From: Candidatus Kaiserbacteria bacterium
Lineage (GTDB): Bacteria; Patescibacteriota; Minisyncoccia; Phycocordibacterales; UBA2100
DNA length: 51,898 bases
NCBI GenBank assembly: GCA_963767115.1
Contig: CAVYCR010000002.1
Span: forward strand, 1 to 51,898
Reading direction: 5' to 3'
The notes below the pieces were generated by a model, which saw only the letters and a list, made by a program, of their open reading frames with translations, made no database searches and had not been told where the DNA came from. The position numbers were made by a program, and so were the translations under genes. Positions 6,823 to 48,686 of this stretch are shown here, in pieces. How positions within the stretch are numbered: position 1 is the first letter of the stretch; each line of letters starts with the position of its first letter.

Positions 6823-7359
6823 ATGTTTTCTCGTTTAACTCTATTTCGCCAACAATTAACAACAATAAATTCATACCGGAATTTATCATTTAAACAAATA
6901 AATGAATTAAAACCGATTCTTAGTCGAAATCTTGCTTGGTTCTCTGGAAAATCAACCAAACAAACTTCGGGTTTGTGAGAATTGTTTTTAAATTTAACTC
7001 CTTAAGAATTTCTTTATATAAAATTGTACATATCTTATGATATGATACATGGAGTTAAAGAACAGAAGGTCATCGAGTGCATTATCGCGAAGATATTGAA
7101 TGAATACGTTAAATTTGTATTGTTTTTAATAGGTGGAAGATTAAAACGACGTTTAGAAATATCATTCTAATTAGTGTCATTGGTTTTGGTACAATCTCTA
7201 TTTATGGTAAATATCGTCGATATCGATGGTTCCATGAGATGGATGATTCTGATAAGACTATTGGTACTAAACCACGTATTATCGTTCTTGGAACAGGTAA
7301 AGAATAGATTAATTATTTATATTTATTTGAATAATATTAAATAGGTTGGGGTGCTGTGC
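6823..7359 (+). CDS. Mitochondrial type II (alternative) NADH dehydrogenase, first three exons, truncated at the junction
   Basis: Arg/Ser/Leu-rich presequence MFSRLTLFRQQ...; GT-AG introns 6971-7132 and 7297-7344. Spliced product reads KPRIIVLGTG-WGAV, the first Rossmann motif of the Nde1/Ndi1 family. One probable 1-nt indel near 7152. Confidence 0.85.
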
Positions 7360-8674
<1,315 letters not shown>

Positions 8675-17208: not shown

Positions 17209-17258
17209 TTGCAGAGGTCAGACCTCTGCAATCTTTTCCACAGAGGTCTGACCTCTGT
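17209..17258. repeat. REP-like palindrome doublet upstream of the RAYT (inverted pair)
   Basis: TTGCAGAGGTC-A-GACCTCTGCAA (17209-17231) and ACAGAGGTC-T-GACCTCTGT (17240-17258). Confidence 0.9.
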
Positions 17259-17293
17259 ATTCCTTCATATGAACGCCGGTATATACTGCGTAC

Positions 17294-17977
17294 ATGCATC
17301 GGAGGGGTCAGATGCGTGCTCTCGATGGGCACCACTATCATATTTTCAACCGTGGCGCACATGAGTACCCTGTTTTTGCAAGTGACGACGATTATAAAAG
17401 GTTCCAGATTCTTCTATACCTGCTCAACACGCACTCCCCTGTCACGGTACGCAACGTGCTTGCGCGATACCAAGAGACAAAAGTGGAGCGGGTGTTTATA
17501 GACGAGTACTGCGACCAGTCACTTGTCGATATACTCGCCTACACGCTCCTACCCAACCATTTCCATTTGGTCTTGCGCGAAAAGGCTGAGGACGGCGTAG
17601 CTCTTTTCATGCAGAAGGTGTGCACTGCCTATTCTATGTATTTCAATACAATGCATGACCATCGCGGCACACTCTGGGAGGGACGGTATAAGTCGCGGCC
17701 GATCGCGAACGAATCGTATCTCAAATACATCTTTGCTTATGTCCACCTCAATGTACTCGATCTCAAAGAGAATCGACGGAAAGACTTTGGCATAAAAGAT
17801 ACGAGAGCTTCACGCGCATTTGTCGCTTCGTATCCGTATTCGAGCTACTACGACTATTACGTGGGAGGCCGGCCGGAGAGGGTCATCTTGTGCGCAACAA
17901 ATCTGCGCGATTTTCTGCGGCAAAACGATTTTGAGGAACTGGCCGCTTGGCAATCAGCCGGCCGCGCAGAGGTCTGA
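17294..17977 (+). mobile_element. REP-associated tyrosine transposase (RAYT, Y1 HUH family)
   Basis: YHIFNRG, YTLLPNHFHLVL (HUH), YFN...GTLWEGRYKS, YVHLN (catalytic Tyr), YPYSSY; palindromes on both sides; no tnpB. Confidence 0.92.
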
Positions 17978-18016
17978 CCTCTGTACCACACGACTACCGA
18001 GGTCTGACCTCTGCAA
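17966..18016. repeat. REP-like palindrome doublet downstream of the RAYT; supplies its TGA stop
   Basis: GCAGAGGTC-T-GACCTCTGT (17966-17984) and GAGGTC-T-GACCTCTGCAA (17999-18016). Confidence 0.9.
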
Positions 18017-25411: not shown

Positions 25412-25542
25412 GATTATATTTGTATATGTCCTTTACACAGGAGATCTTATGGACGGATTATATAGAGGACGTACATGAGCTGCAATGTCTTTATATGTCT
25501 CTGACACTGACTCCGTGTGGCGTCAATCACAGATCTGTCTTT
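25382..25542. repeat. Array of TGTCYYT-like heptamers over the HTH gene start and the divergent promoter region
   Basis: Copies at 25382, 25393, 25405, 25427, 25486, 25496 and 25536. Confidence 0.65.
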
Positions 25543-25614
25543 TATTGCCACAAGGTGCTTCCGAGGCCCTTTTTAAGCCCTGCTTTGGGAGCTTACGTGG
25601 TATTATTGTCCGGT

Positions 25615-27870
25615 ATGGCAGAGGTAAATAGGAAAAAAAAACGAACGAAGAAAAATACTACTGACGACGCGCCGGCACGAGTGAGCGCTGTCTCAGGCGA
25701 GGCGATGCGCAGTGTCGTAGCGATCTTCCTGATCGCGATTGCTATCTTCCTTTTTGTGGCTGAGCTGGGTGGTGGTGGCAAGATTGGTGCTGATGTGTAT
25801 ACCGGCCTTACCTGGCTTCTTGGCGTGGGGTACACACTCTTGCCGATTTCGCTCGTGATGCTCTCGGTGGTCATATTTCGATACTTTGAAAAGACGCTTG
25901 GCTGGATCCAGAGCGTGAGCATGCTCGTCTTCTTGCTCTCAGCACTCGGCCTCGTAAGCGTCGCCTTCCCAGGGCACGGCGGCATTGTCGGCCAATCAAT
26001 ATCTTCTGCGCTCATCGGCTCGATCGATACAACCGCGACAGTGACCTTCTTGGTCGCCTTCGTCATCGCTTCACTCATCATTGCCTTCGATGTAAATCTC
26101 GCAGCAGTCTTTGGGAAGTTGCGTGCGCTCGTTCGCAATCGCTTCGAGGGTGAAGAAGTACTAGACGAGGAGCCGCAGATCAGAGGCTTGCCCGAAGAAA
26201 CAGAGAGCGAAACCGCGTACGCAACGGAGTCAGATGTGCGTGACGAGGAGCCGACAGAACCTGCTCCAAAAGAAGCCGGTGTGATCACGAAATTCTTTAA
26301 TGGTGGCAACGAAGGCCTCGAAGGCGGCTTCCCTATTGCCGCGACAATCGGGCAGGAATACGTGCCGCCGCCGCTCTCTATCCTTGCCAAAAACAAAGGC
26401 AAGCCCGAGGTCGGCGACGTGAAGGCCAACATGAACATCATCAAGCGCACACTCCAGAACTTCGGCATCACCGTCGAAATGGACGAAGCCTCGATCGGCC
26501 CGACCGTCACGCGCTACGCGATGAAGCCGGCCGAGGGCGTACGGCTCTCAAAGATCGTCGCGCTCCAGAGCAACCTCGAGCTCGCGCTTGCGGTGAGCCC
26601 CGTGCGCATCGAGGCGCCGATCCCGGGCAAATCACTCGTCGGGATCGAAGTGCCGAACATCGCGCGCACCACGCTCGGCCTGGCGCCGCTCCTCTCTGAC
26701 GAAGGATTCACCGATTCCGACAAGCCGCTCTTGGTCGCCCTCGGCCGCTCCATCACCGGCGCGCCGCATTCGCCGACATCGCGACGATGCCGCACATGCT
26801 CGTCGCCGGCGCGACCGGCGCGGGCAAATCTGTCACGATCCATGACTTCATCGTTTCGCTTCTCTATCGCTGCGGGCCCGAGAACGCTGCGCTTCATCAT
26901 GGTCGACCCGAAGCGCGTCGAGCTCACGCTTTATAACTCGATTCCGCATCTTCTCACACCGGTCATCACCGACGCCGAAGAAGGCGATCCTCGCCCTCAA
27001 ATGGCTCGCCAAAGAAATGGATCGCCGCTACAACATCCTCGAGGCCGAAAAAGTGCGCGACATCTCTTCCTATCACGAAAACGTCGTCAAGCCGGCACTC
27101 GAAAAGGCAGCAAAGAATAACGGTAGCGAAGGAGAACAGATGCCGGAAGCGATGCCCTACATCGTCGTCATCATCGACGAGCTCGCCGACATCATGCAGG
27201 CCTACCCGCGCGAGCTCGAGAGCGGCATCGTGCGCCTGGCACAGATGAGCCGTGCCGTCGGCATCCACCTTATCCTTCGACACAGCGCCCGTCGGTGAAG
27301 GTCATTACCGGCCTCATCAAGGCCAACATGCCGGCCCGCCTCGCGCTCCAAGTCGCCTCGCAGATCGACTCGCGCACCATCCTCGACATGGGTGGCGCCG
27401 AGAAGCTCTTGGGTGCTGGCGACATGCTCTTCCTTTCAGGCGAAATGTCAAAACCGAACCGCATCCAGGCACCGTATATATCGGAAGCCGAGGTAAAGAA
27501 AATCGTTGCCTATCTTGCCAAACAATCCGAAGGAACACTCCCGAGCGAGATCGACCTGAGTGAAGGCAAGGGTGCGACCGGCGGCGGCATGGACCCTATT
27601 TTCTCATCAATGATAGGAGATGATGAAGAAGAGGATGAGCTGTATGCCGAGGCTAAACGCACGGTGATAGAAGCCGGTAAGGCGTCGACCTCGTACCTCC
27701 AGCGGAAGCTCGGCATCGGCTATGCGCGCGCAGCCAAGCTCATCGACATACTCGAGGAGCACGGCGTGGTGGGACCTGCCGACGGCGCCAAGCCGCGCGA
27801 CGTGATCGGCGGCGGCCAAGCCGACGAACTCGTAAAGGCGGCTGAAGCCTCTGGGGACGAACCGTTATGA
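25615..27870 (+). CDS. ftsK: DNA translocase FtsK/SpoIIIE, about four 1-nt frameshifts
   Basis: 4-TM N-terminus, [16 protein letters not shown], Walker [10 protein letters not shown] (shifted frame), [21 protein letters not shown], gamma domain [18 protein letters not shown]. Confidence 0.95.
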
Positions 27871-27873
27871 TGA

Positions 27874-27993
27874 GGCACGAAACGGTGGCGCAGGTATTTT
27901 GCCGTCTACACAGGCGCGGCGGCGCCGAGTCTGAGCGCTGGGCGAGCACGCCCAGACAGCGACGGCAAAATACCTGCGCCACCGTTTCGTGCC
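27874..27993 (+). ncRNA. 120-nt structured element, copy 1 (candidate ncRNA or MITE)
   Basis: Perfect 33-bp inverted repeat (27874-27906 / 27961-27993); loop holds CGGCGGCGC and CTGGGCG-AGCA-CGCCCAG. Confidence 0.65.
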
Positions 27994-28012: not shown

Positions 28013-28453
28013 ATGCTCCCCTACCGCGACAGCAGACTCACGCGCTTTGGACTCATTATCTTCTTTATCGTTCTGATCGCGTACGCGTACTTCGAGGCCC
28101 GCGGCCTACTCTTCGGCCCGAGCATCAGCATCGATGACACAAGCGTCCAGACCGTGCAGAGCCAGTACATACTCATCACCGGCCATGCCGATCGCATCGC
28201 ATCGCTTTCCGTCGACGGTGAGCCGATCCAAGTGACGATCAACGGAGATTTCCAAGAACCCTACGTGCTCTCACCCGGCGAAAACCAGATAGTCTTCGAC
28301 GCGAAGGATTCCTATGGACGGACCCGCGAACAAGTCCTCACCGTGGTCTACACGCAGTCGGCGACTGACACGGCGTCAACCTCCTCGATACAGACGGCGA
28401 GTTCGACAAGCACGGGCGCTACGACGACCATGAGCACCTCTTCACTACCTTGA
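28013..28453 (+). CDS. Membrane-anchored Ig-like domain protein
   Basis: TM, then GPSISI...ITGHA...LSPGENQIVFDAKDSYGR, Ser/Thr tail. Confidence 0.75.
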   Translation: MLPYRDSRLTRFGLIIFFIVLIAYAYFEARGLLFGPSISIDDTSVQTVQSQYILITGHADRIASLSVDGEPIQVTINGDFQEPYVLSPGENQIVFDAKDSYGRTREQVLTVVYTQSATDTASTSSIQTASSTSTGATTTMSTSSLP

Positions 28454-45892: not shown

Positions 45893-47569
45893 TTATTCGG
45901 CAAGATTCTTTTTCTTATTCCTATTCGCAAACCAATCATCCTCGATGAGCCCGAGGTGCGCGAGACGGGCGTGGATCGCGCTCGGCTTGCGACCGAAATG
46001 TTTGGCGATTTCACCCTGCTTCACATCTTGCGTAAACATCGCTTTCAGCGTGTCATCGTCTTCCTGTTTCCAAGGCTTGCCCATGTTGGGATACTTCTCG
46101 CGCAAAGCAGCACGCGGGTCGGCCGCACCGGATTCCGGCGCAGAGGGTGACCGAGCAATGTCTGAGCGGAGCGAGTTGCGGAGGTCGCCCGGCGCGCCGG
46201 AGTCCGGTGCGACCGACTTCGGCTCTTTCGCACCGATAGCCCGCAAGAAATTCTTCTCCATCTTTTCTTTGTCATCGCTCGCAAGCGTCGCGAACTTCTT
46301 GCGCGCAGCGTCCGAGTACGCGCGGAAGTAACGGTCTTGCGCGACGACACCCGGATGCATCTCAAGCGCACGCTCGTTGAAGCCGACCAGATGCAAGCCC
46401 GCGAGCGAGCGCACGCGCGAGATCGCCACGTACCCTTGGCCGTATTCGAAGGCACTTGCGAGGTCGACGAGCGCGCTCTCCAGGCTCATGCCCTGGCTCT
46501 TGTGCACGGTGATCGCCCACGCGAGACGCAGCGGCACTTGGCTCAGGCGCGCAAGGATCCTGTTGCCGTCTTGGATCGCCCACTCGACCGGCTCCACGTT
46601 GAGCGTCAGGCCCTGCCTCGTGCGCACGATCGGGGTGCCGAGCGGCGTGAAGCCGACGACCTCCGCGAGCGTGCCATTCACATATCCTGCTTCAAAGTTG
46701 TTGCGCGTGAACATCACCATCGCGCCTTCCTTGAGGACCAGCGTCTCGGGTGAAAGGCAATTCTTCTTGAGAGTCTCGACGAGTGAGGCCGCGCCGCGCG
46801 AGGTCATCTGGAAGACATGTGAGCTGCCGTCGATTTTCTGCAGAGCATCGTTGTTGATGCGATCGACATCGGCATTGTGCGTATAGAGCCTCGTGGCTCC
46901 ACTTGCCGTAGTCGCATTCATTCTTCCTCGCAATTGCTCACGGTGTGCCTGGGTGACCGCTCCGCTTCGCATCGCACCAAGCAATGCAAGAAATTCGCCG
47001 TCATCCTGGCGATGCTGTTCGTTGAGGTAACAAATGACGGGGTTAGCATCCTTCCACGCCGAGGATTCAAAGGCGAATTTAGGCCTTTCTTCCCGACCAC
47101 CTTCGCTTTCGCTTCGACGTGTCACGGGTGGCAACTGGAAAAAGTCTCCGACGAAGATCACCTGCAATCCGCCAAAGGGTTCTTCGGGCATCAGGGGCCG
47201 GCGACGCAGTGTGCGCAAGACGCGGTCGACGCTCTCGAGCGTCGTCGCGTCAAGCATCGAGATCTCGTCGATGATCAGGACTTTGGCATCGATGATGCGC
47301 CGCGCCGTCTTTTCCTTGCTCTGGATGTATTCGATGTCGTAATCATTTACGTACCGCTTCACGCCTATACCGCTCCACGAGTGAATCGTCATGCCGTCGA
47401 TATGTGTGGCGGCGATGCCGGTCGAAGCGGTGACCGCCGCATCGACGCCGCGCTCCTGGAGCCACCGCACGTGCGCATTGATCGTGTGCGTCTTGCCGCT
47501 CCCCGGCTCGCCGGTGAGAAATACGTTGAGGCCCGTCTTCAAAATGGCCAATGCTTCAGTCTGTGTCAT
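45893..47569 (-). CDS. PIF1-like SF1B helicase with C-terminal HTH
   Basis: GEPGSGKT, DEISM, GDFFQLPPV, AWAITVHKSQG, YVAISR; tail PW...EIAKHFGRKPSAIHARL. Confidence 0.93.
   Translation of the reverse strand: MTQTEALAILKTGLNVFLTGEPGSGKTHTINAHVRWLQERGVDAAVTASTGIAATHIDGMTIHSWSGIGVKRYVNDYDIEYIQSKEKTARRIIDAKVLIIDEISMLDATTLESVDRVLRTLRRRPLMPEEPFGGLQVIFVGDFFQLPPVTRRSESEGGREERPKFAFESSAWKDANPVICYLNEQHRQDDGEFLALLGAMRSGAVTQAHREQLRGRMNATTASGATRLYTHNADVDRINNDALQKIDGSSHVFQMTSRGAASLVETLKKNCLSPETLVLKEGAMVMFTRNNFEAGYVNGTLAEVVGFTPLGTPIVRTRQGLTLNVEPVEWAIQDGNRILARLSQVPLRLAWAITVHKSQGMSLESALVDLASAFEYGQGYVAISRVRSLAGLHLVGFNERALEMHPGVVAQDRYFRAYSDAARKKFATLASDDKEKMEKNFLRAIGAKEPKSVAPDSGAPGDLRNSLRSDIARSPSAPESGAADPRAALREKYPNMGKPWKQEDDDTLKAMFTQDVKQGEIAKHFGRKPSAIHARLAHLGLIEDDWFANRNKKKNLAE
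46118..46217. repeat. 100-nt palindromic element read in frame within the helicase
   Basis: 24-nt arms gtcggccgcaccggattccggcgc / gcgccggagtccggtgcgaccgac (2 mismatches); inner gggtgacc/ggtcgccc and gcaa/ttgc; GAGCGGAGCGA in the loop. Confidence 0.8.
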
Positions 47570-47601: not shown

Positions 47602-47719
47602 CGCATCAACCTTGCGGGAATTGCATTTTGGGGTCGTTCTTTTCTTGCTAGAAAAGAACTCTGTTTCGCGCCGCCGGGCTGCAAAGACCCCAAAATGCAA
47701 TTCCGGCAGAGTTGATGCG
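47602..47719 (-). ncRNA. 118-nt structured element, copy 2 (same architecture as 27874-27993)
   Basis: 34-nt arms with 3 mismatches; minus-strand loop holds CGGCGGCGC and GTTCTTTTCT-AGCA-AGAAAAGAAC. Confidence 0.65.
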
Positions 47720-47720
47720 G

Positions 47721-48686
47721 TTACAGATGACACACAGAATCAAGCTCCGCGACATCCGCTGCAGTAGGGTTCTCGGTCGTGCCGTCGTTGAGTGCGTTCA
47801 TGATGGCTTGCGGATCGGAGACGTGTTCCATCCCGAGGCTGTGGCCAAACTCGTGTGCGATCACGCGATGCAGGCGCACGGTTGAATCATATTCATAGAT
47901 GTTGATCGACTCTTCCCCGAAGCTGCTTTCGAATACTCCTTCTTCAAATTCGCTGCCGGTCGTGGCTCCGATCGCGTCGTACTTTTCGACGTTGAGGTTG
48001 AGCGCGCCGATGAGCTGGTTGATCTCGTCTGCAAGAGAGTTGAGTGAATCGACCTCCGTGTTGAGCGAAGTTTGCTGAGCCTCGAGCTGCGAAGATTGCG
48101 TCTGCAAGGCGGCCTTCTGTGATTGCAGCTGATCGTAGGTGCTGCTCGGCGCGCCTCCGCGCGCGTTCCATTGCTGCACCTCTTGGTTGTATTCGTCCTG
48201 CTGATTCTGAAAGCTCGCATATGCGCTGTCGAAAGCCGACTTATCCGAGAGATACTGCGTCTGCTGCGCTGCGTACTCCTCTTTGAGGTCGTTGTACTGC
48301 GCCATGCCGCTATCGACAGAGCTATCGATCGAGCTCATTTCATCTTCGGCGTTTTGGCGATAGTCGTAGACGAAATTCACCACGACGACGCCGTGGCTTG
48401 GATCGTAAGCGAGCACCGTCTTGCCTGCCGCCGTGTTCCATTTGCCAGCCGCGTTTTGTAGGAGCGTGAGCACCTGTGCTTGCGAGAGACCGAAGCGTGG
48501 GTCGATCGTCCCGATGCGGTAGGTCACCGGCGCGTCGCACGGGAAGAAGCGCTGATACGCCTGCGAGAGCACCACACGCGTCTGCTGCGGAAATATGAAA
48601 AAGACGAAGCAAAGTATCGCCACTATGACGACAAGCTCAAGCAGGCTGCGCTGCCACGCGCTTTTAGTATGCGGCACTATCTCCAT
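47721..48686 (-). CDS. Matrixin-type (metzincin) metalloprotease with inserted coiled coil, membrane-anchored
   Basis: HEFGHSLGMEH plus Met-turn AIMN; Gln-rich heptad region. Confidence 0.9.
   Translation of the reverse strand: MEIVPHTKSAWQRSLLELVVIVAILCFVFFIFPQQTRVVLSQAYQRFFPCDAPVTYRIGTIDPRFGLSQAQVLTLLQNAAGKWNTAAGKTVLAYDPSHGVVVVNFVYDYRQNAEDEMSSIDSSVDSGMAQYNDLKEEYAAQQTQYLSDKSAFDSAYASFQNQQDEYNQEVQQWNARGGAPSSTYDQLQSQKAALQTQSSQLEAQQTSLNTEVDSLNSLADEINQLIGALNLNVEKYDAIGATTGSEFEEGVFESSFGEESINIYEYDSTVRLHRVIAHEFGHSLGMEHVSDPQAIMNALNDGTTENPTAADVAELDSVCHL

Follow-up and report, generated by a model that had tools for sequence, protein, structure and literature searches.

Long hairpin repeats with conserved cores and copy-specific arms at gene 3′ ends in Candidatus Kaiserbacteria

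Described hairpin repeats and a long hairpin behind ftsK

REP and REPIN sequences with their RAYT transposases, known from Enterobacteria and Pseudomonas, are abundant short extragenic hairpin repeats that make no target duplication, often lie right after genes and are long-lived, and all of this holds for the elements described here. The likeness extends to the presence of Y1 transposases in the same genomes and to a conserved tetranucleotide beside a small G+C hairpin. In REPINs, however, conserved REPs of 20-40 nt form the arms and the loop varies, whereas the present elements keep the loop and leave most of the stem free; they also have no RAYT gene flanked by their cores (among 10 Y1 genes) and show no co-variation with Y1. 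Bacterial MITEs (Correia/NEMIS, RUP, ERIC, Nezha) are likewise non-autonomous and multi-copy, measure about 100-170 nt, form long hairpins when transcribed, and are inserted between genes or occasionally in frame within them. The palindromic elements of Rickettsia insert in frame in genes. MITEs carry conserved terminal inverted repeats and direct target-site duplications, whereas the termini here are copy-specific in most genomes: in one relative, G073, arms of 32 nt are common to about 10 of 18 copies, and in the genome studied here only the inner 12 bp or so are shared.

Integron attC sites are imperfect palindromes of 57-141 nt that follow the stops of ORFs and conserve structure over sequence, and the present elements resemble them in standing directly after stop codons and in keeping structure more than sequence. 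The attC sites, however, have conserved outer boxes around a variable centre and form arrays next to an integrase, whereas the elements here show the opposite conservation, with outer ends that are not conserved, and occur as single copies scattered over 10 of the 12 contigs. Intrinsic (Rho-independent) terminators, finally, are also stable hairpins just behind genes. In this genome their stems of 13-17 bp are preceded by an A-run and followed by a T-run. In the elements the T-run comes before the core and the A-run behind it, and the complete hairpin is not followed by a T-run. Taken together, the elements work most like non-autonomous elements of the REPIN or MITE type, yet differ from these in that the loop is conserved in place of the arms, that no target duplication is seen and that no cognate transposase was found among the Y1 genes.

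The window, that is, the whole stretch of DNA that was analysed, comprises 51,898 nucleotides of contig CAVYCR010000002.1 and belongs to a genome of 12 contigs and 1,026,153 bases. A first-pass annotation, made from the sequence letters, had claimed a perfect 33-bp stem closing a 54-nt loop just after the TGA of ftsK, and an inverted-repeat search agrees with it in both arms and coordinates: the hairpin, hereafter copy 1, occupies 27874-27993 on the forward strand, and its two arms of 33 nt (27874-27906 and 27961-27993) are 100% complementary and enclose a core of 54 nt (27907-27960). The loop stretch CGGCGGCGC and the AGCA-capped hairpin that had been pointed out are both present in this core, and the lack of a U-tract was rightly noted, no T-run following copy 1. 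Folded as RNA, the copy reaches a minimum free energy of −97.3 kcal/mol, where shuffled sequences average −50.8 (z −11.7) and none of 200 does equally well; the complementary strand is of similar stability (z −12.4).

Copy 1 is a member of the family A alignment considered below and scores 121.2 bits with the family A covariance model. Conservation in the alignment marks out an inner stem (27895-27906, pairing with 27961-27972), which reads as a T-run followed by GCCGTC, and a comparison of arms across copies shows that the roughly 20 bp outside it are specific to copy 1. Within the core, hairpin 1 (27913-27926) closes a GGCG loop with a G+C stem of 5 bp and is preceded on its 5′ side by the tetranucleotide ACAG, the other family A copies and family B having GCAG there. 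Hairpin 2 (27938-27955) has a 7-bp stem under an invariant AGCA loop (27945-27948). Both stems are 100% paired, with double-sided changes at two pairs of the first and three pairs of the second.

The placement of copy 1 after an ftsK stop codon holds as well, with the correction that ftsK (25420-27870, forward strand; Pfam FtsK_alpha, FtsK_SpoIIIE and FtsK_gamma) runs over three overlapping frames (25420-27120, 27017-27298 and 27295-27870) and therefore has two apparent frameshifts, near 27115 and 27270. In relatives ftsK is a single frame of about 750 aa; the split gene of the window is a pseudogene, unless the assembly is in error there. The last frame stops at the TGA of 27868-27870, a second TGA follows, and then comes copy 1; the gene downstream is an ORF of 146 aa on the same strand (28013-28453). 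Among 19 relatives from the genus, the ftsK stop lies 1-6 nt from the start of the next gene in 11, a B-like hairpin fills the spacer in two (G014 and G016), and other spacers are found in six. The same spacer in G017, G021 and G022 is filled with short tandem heptamer or hexamer repeats. Empty sites, which had been proposed as something to look for, thus exist in the form of the 11 relatives that have no hairpin after ftsK; at nucleotide resolution none was found, the closest genomes of the genus being 82-84% identical and none exceeding about 84%. Relatives in metagenomes are at most 74% identical at the protein level, close contig pairs among them showed only unrelated indels, and there are no close pairs among the element-bearing loci.

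The beginning of the window differs in composition from the rest. Its first 8 kb or so have 32-36% G+C against 48-60% elsewhere in the window. A partial LSU rRNA (7256-8640, reverse strand) spans Rfam model positions 15-2044 within only 1385 bases. Possible readings are an rRNA gene that has sizeable gaps or inserted segments, and a contig end that is chimeric.

Families, neighbours and distribution of the elements

A second element had been reported together with copy 1, on the reverse strand at 47602-47719. It is real, shares the design of copy 1 and also follows a stop codon, but it belongs to a sister family, B, and not to the same family. Its core lies at 47636-47685, its 37-nt arms are 89% complementary, and its fold has a z of −9.8 against shuffles. 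This copy 2 lies between the stop codon of an M10 (matrixin-like) peptidase gene (47721-48686, reverse strand), from which it is 1 nt away, and the start of a PIF1-like helicase gene (45893-47569, reverse strand). The helicase ORF has a hairpin of its own, of family F, in frame in a variable linker (46118-46217, forward strand), with imperfect arms of 35 nt that are 83% complementary around a 30-nt core (46153-46182).

An inverted-repeat scan of the whole genome, with a minimum arm length of 16 nt and a minimum loop of 28 nt, returned 62 hairpins, and BLAST with six representative loops placed at least 54 loci in six core families over the 1.03 Mb: 14 of family A (one truncated), 16 of B, 10 of C, 7 of D, 3 of E and 4 of F. 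There are also a seventh family with a 20-nt core and four copies, and several singletons. By arithmetic from the locus list, the superfamily takes up about 0.7% of the 1-Mb genome. All families have the same layout, in which a stem of about 28-36 bp ends, beside the core, in a T-run and 3-7 G+C-rich bases, mirrored on the other side with an A-run. The core is kept within a family; the outer 20 bp or so differ from copy to copy yet are complementary within each copy. Element lengths range from 90 to 170 nt across the superfamily, family D measuring 165-175 nt.

Families A and B share a design, namely GCAG, a G+C hairpin with a GGCG or GACG loop, a linker and an AGCA-capped hairpin, and the covariance model of family A also scores B copies; in both families the GRCG and AGCA loops and the linkers are invariant. 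The cores of family D are 107 nt long and contain a canonical bidirectional terminator made of an A-run, a G+C stem with an AGCA loop and a T-run (for example in contig C1, 158199-158363), so that here the long hairpin carries a terminator as cargo. Two hairpins of family E stand inverted, 14 nt apart, in the divergent spacer between dnaA and rnpA (C1, 91393-91676), which is likely the replication origin region, and a second E-E pair is found upstream of a UvrD-type helicase gene (C1, 111053-111325). The idea that such pairs form the borders of a mobile island was rejected, since one of them sits in the dnaA-rnpA spacer.

A covariance model search for further copies had been suggested at the outset, and the family A model matches 79 of the 101 genomes sampled from the genus (55 of the 72 good-quality ones), with hundreds of further copies. 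A scan with an 18-mer over one genome per species, 185,579 species in all, gave 78 loci. By the model, 38 of these are true elements, and they come from assemblies of Candidatus Kaiserbacteria, Parcubacteria, Patescibacteria, Paceibacterota and Nomurabacteria, from assemblies automatically labelled 'Saccharibacteria', or from unlabelled bins; the remaining 40, in other phyla, are chance matches. Known families were looked for in Rfam 15, where nothing in the whole window reached the gathering threshold except LSU rRNA, and a permissive search with four elements gave only sub-threshold matches resembling microRNA precursors, the best of 45 bits against a threshold of 89. One hairpin of the element-poor genome G066 (C1, 147889-147988) has 22-bp arms around a 56-nt core that resembles the anticodon and T arms of a tRNA.

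No report of such repeats in Patescibacteria or CPR bacteria was found in the part of the literature that was searched; supplementary repeat tables could hold some. The hairpin repeats are a real and abundant superfamily and apparently an undescribed one. CPR genomes are very small and gene-dense and are usually thought to be poor in repetitive DNA, and the superfamily is present in most species of the genus despite that expectation. With further copies found, with the shared loop motifs conserved across species in the alignment treated below and with no matching Rfam family, the original suggestion of an unrecognised family, acting as a functional RNA or as a mobile unit recognised by its structure, is supported.

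Pairing within the stems and divergence of the arms

The pairing of the stems was followed through two alignments. In 13 family A copies from the window's genome, 97.6% of 494 cells form pairs; double-sided changes number 129, a single G-U occurs and 12 cells are unpaired, and no shuffle or slid register comes near these values. The cross-species alignment was made by fitting to the model and comprises 35 rows from 29 genomes, a few of them weak and on the reverse strand; 94.6% of its cells are paired, and 368 double-sided changes affect 36 of the 38 pairs. Even the stems of the small core hairpins are near saturation with mirrored changes. It had been claimed that structure is selected over sequence here, and the strong covariation and the pairing-only outer stem bear this out; the claim goes too far for the core, which is conserved in sequence too. 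Sequence is conserved in the core and in some 12 bp of the inner stem, and the outer 20 bp or so are constrained only to pair.

The same division is seen at orthologous sites. Five pairs of copies occupy the same site in different species, with flanks that are 67-79% identical. Their cores agree at 40-49 of 54 positions and their inner arms at 7-11 of 11, and their outer arms agree at only 4-9 of 23, which is chance level, while each copy still pairs. Arms that diverge at orthologous sites with their pairing kept mark the elements as old residents, whose sequence is free where only pairing matters. The orthologous element of G014 and G016 has four differences in about 120 positions, the 3.1 kb around it being 80% identical, and two of the four make up a compensatory change from A-T to G-C in the AGCA hairpin; such a count suggests purifying selection on the element.

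Recent copies look different. Genome G073 has 22 matches, and the 32-nt arms that about 10 of its 18 displayed copies share include a non-complementary internal loop, which means that in a recent burst an element takes its arms with it. The shared arms of G073 and the divergence of the orthologous pairs largely settle why arms differ. Some similarity between arms is also left in the window's genome, where five arm pairs lie at or above the 99.9th percentile of similarity (1.2 expected), sometimes with conserved outer and inner blocks around a replaced middle block. Among 1040 pairs in 57 copies from relatives, read on the core strand, the mismatches comprise 22 G-U, 8 A-C and 8 others; the excess of G-U over A-C is discounted as evidence of selection at the RNA level because the core is mostly antisense in relatives.

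Probable movement, maintenance and possible function

In the reading that we favour, to which we give a probability of about 60%, copy 1 is a family A member of a genus-wide superfamily of old, non-autonomous mobile hairpin repeats that are kept at gene 3′ ends. The elements are inserted as whole hairpins without target-site duplication, and they would be non-autonomous DNA moved in trans, possibly in the form of single-stranded hairpins handled by a Y1 (HUH) transposase. HUH-type single-strand transposition is suggested because the elements are hairpins and leave no target duplication, inspection of the flank listings for the window's genome and G073 having shown no direct repeats. Bursts in which the arms are carried along do occur, as in G073, and the elements afterwards stay at the same site in different species while their arms drift with mirrored changes. 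The inserted hairpin would be read through within the transcript of the upstream gene, and its stable stem may then act as a 3′-end hairpin in protection, processing or insulation of neighbouring genes. That old copies still have a conserved core suggests a protein partner.

It is possible, if unlikely, that the elements are REPIN- or REP-type units proper, with a RAYT (a Y1 HUH transposase) acting on single-stranded core hairpins. The enzyme class is certainly at hand: Y1 (PF01797) has 10 matches in the window's genome, 8 of them over the cut-off and one inside the window, and Y1_Tnp occurs in 108 of 116 genus genomes. The lack of target-site duplications agrees with such an enzyme, and the conserved GCAG that stands 5′ of the first core hairpin in family B and in most copies of family A resembles the tag that lies next to the hairpin in REPs (PMC3733652). 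Short REP palindromes of their own flank the Y1 genes, apart from two genes for proteins of 197-211 aa (C4:96-689 and C3:221319-221954) that have no REP beside them, and classical REP/RAYT units are therefore present in the same genome. The window holds one of them (17212-18014, forward strand), consisting of a RAYT-like Y1 (IS200-like) transposase gene with the Pfam domain Y1_Tnp (17294-17977) between REP doublets at 17212-17257 and 17966-18014. The gene is complete, with 227 aa in which the HUH motif and the catalytic tyrosine are visible, and its REP is a 19-nt perfect palindrome that recurs on contigs C12 and C3. No REP/RAYT system in Patescibacteria or CPR bacteria turned up in literature searches, within the part of the literature that these took in. 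We regard the unit of the window as a separate REP/RAYT system and as a candidate mobiliser of the hairpins only in the sense of its enzyme class.

The tie between enzyme and element is what this explanation lacks. The first-pass annotation had proposed looking for a co-occurring nuclease or transposase, and none proved tied to the family. No Y1 gene is flanked by cores of families A-F, the 350-nt flanks of all 10 genes giving two 12-nt chance matches only; in 98 genomes the number of Y1 genes is uncorrelated with the number of family A copies (rho −0.11); and elements occur in four genomes that have no Y1 match. The architecture, moreover, is inverted, with a conserved loop and variable arms. 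No autonomous parent element was found in a search that took in Y1 and TnpB. The genome also has three reverse transcriptase (RVT_1) genes, at C5:134686-135291, C3:211372-211983 and C5:125259-125867.

Another explanation, which we consider improbable, is that only the core and a short inner stem move and that every insertion creates its arms afresh, the outer stem being built by snap-back synthesis or inverted duplication. The outer stem is indeed nearly pure Watson-Crick, with one G-U among its 338 cells in the 13 copies mentioned above. Two family C copies have cores identical at 54 of 54 positions and unrelated arms, so slow drift alone is insufficient, and in G073 the conserved arms are extended outwards by palindromes of 4-16 bp that differ from copy to copy. 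The scarcity of G-U pairs, the family C arms and these outer palindromes together leave room for a process that mirrors arms at the DNA level. Arms also match nothing else in the genome or the genus: matches elsewhere in the genome are at chance level, which disposes of copying from there, and the arms of copy 1 are absent from 116 genus genomes, the alignments listed having their ends within positions 12-116 of the copy and the best of them covering 19-102. Two pre-existing sources of arms were rejected as well, namely terminators (outer arms fold no better than shuffles, mean z −0.05, n=50) and empty long hairpins (0 of 50 small-loop hairpins have the layout with the T-run inside).

What was inserted can be read from a comparison with an 859-kb contig of G066, in which 23 sites have both flanks aligned and three are tightly anchored. 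At these three, where the hairpins are 125, 126 and 130 nt long, the additional DNA comes to 130, 133 and 145 nt, 5-15 nt more than the hairpin itself, and therefore the whole hairpin with both arms is, as a rule, the added DNA. At one family F site a hairpin of 86 nt corresponds to 64 nt of additional DNA, and the linker of the window's helicase has a length excess of 66-69 nt, which fits a core with one arm, so that these two would suit newly made arms; the other sites are too loosely anchored to read. Besides the three anchored sites, this explanation has against it the 32-nt arms with their non-complementary internal loop common to the G073 copies, the residual arm similarity in the window's genome, and the orthologous pairs, in which arms diverge completely after insertion anyway.

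Function at gene ends without mobility is the third alternative, and we hold it to be quite improbable that the elements are host-encoded cis-regulatory RNAs, terminator-like or for stability, that do not move. The copies do adjoin stop codons: the stems of A and B start −5 to 8 nt from the stop codon in most copies of the window's genome, and the elements almost always occupy tiny spacers at gene ends. Their long-term conservation at orthologous sites with compensatory changes, and the terminator hairpin in family D cores, also fit such a role. Presence at the same site, however, varies between species, near-identical copies have burst in G073, and one copy is inserted inside a coding linker; the A and B hairpins have no U-run after them, and the ordinary terminators of the genome look different.

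The core, moreover, occurs on either strand relative to genes. In tandem gene contexts of the window's genome, as given by crude ORF calls, A and B cores are sense in 19 cases and antisense in 4, and all families together give 22 sense and 8 antisense of 52 by the same crude calls. At 40 loci from other genomes, a sample that is not independent, as it includes orthologous duplicates and 14 loci from one genome, the count is 6 sense and 17 antisense (binomial p 0.035). These opposite biases are evidence against a single RNA-strand function of the core. Because the bias is reversed between the genome and its relatives, selection may act on RNA or on DNA hairpins, and since the elements stand at gene 3′ ends both ways round, a common RNA feature can lie only in the strand-symmetric stem. 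It is more likely that the core is read at the DNA level, or that its orientation was fixed by lineage history.

That the hairpin is processed to yield guide- or spacer-like sequences, taken from foreign DNA and stored as its variable arms, is hardly credible: the variable part is about 20 nt long, unique to each copy and set beside a conserved scaffold, but all three arms tested lack an exact match in 2.9 million viral contigs, orthologous copies drift, arms are common to G073 copies, and no TnpB/Cas12f-like domain was found in the window's genome. A viral contig with an 18-mer of the core junction proved not to be an element.

For the study of these genomes, the mobile, gene-end hairpins that we favour have a practical side, in that they seed spurious ORFs and may seed assembly breaks in such MAGs. 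Their pattern of conservation, with a conserved core, a stem that is free if paired and the same junctions across species, is unusual. They also provide a natural data set on how long perfect palindromes are tolerated and kept, and on whether inserted hairpins end or protect transcripts in these organisms. A more speculative and rather unlikely extension of our reading is that the elements have become domesticated modules, in which the core would be a docking site for a dedicated protein and the stem of about 30 bp would be kept perfectly Watson-Crick at the DNA level, through correction templated by the hairpin or through re-synthesis of one arm on its partner. If this were true, palindromes would be propagated and maintained here in a way distinct from REP/RAYT and MITE biology, and the elements would be portable 3′-end hairpins for gene-dense, reduced genomes.
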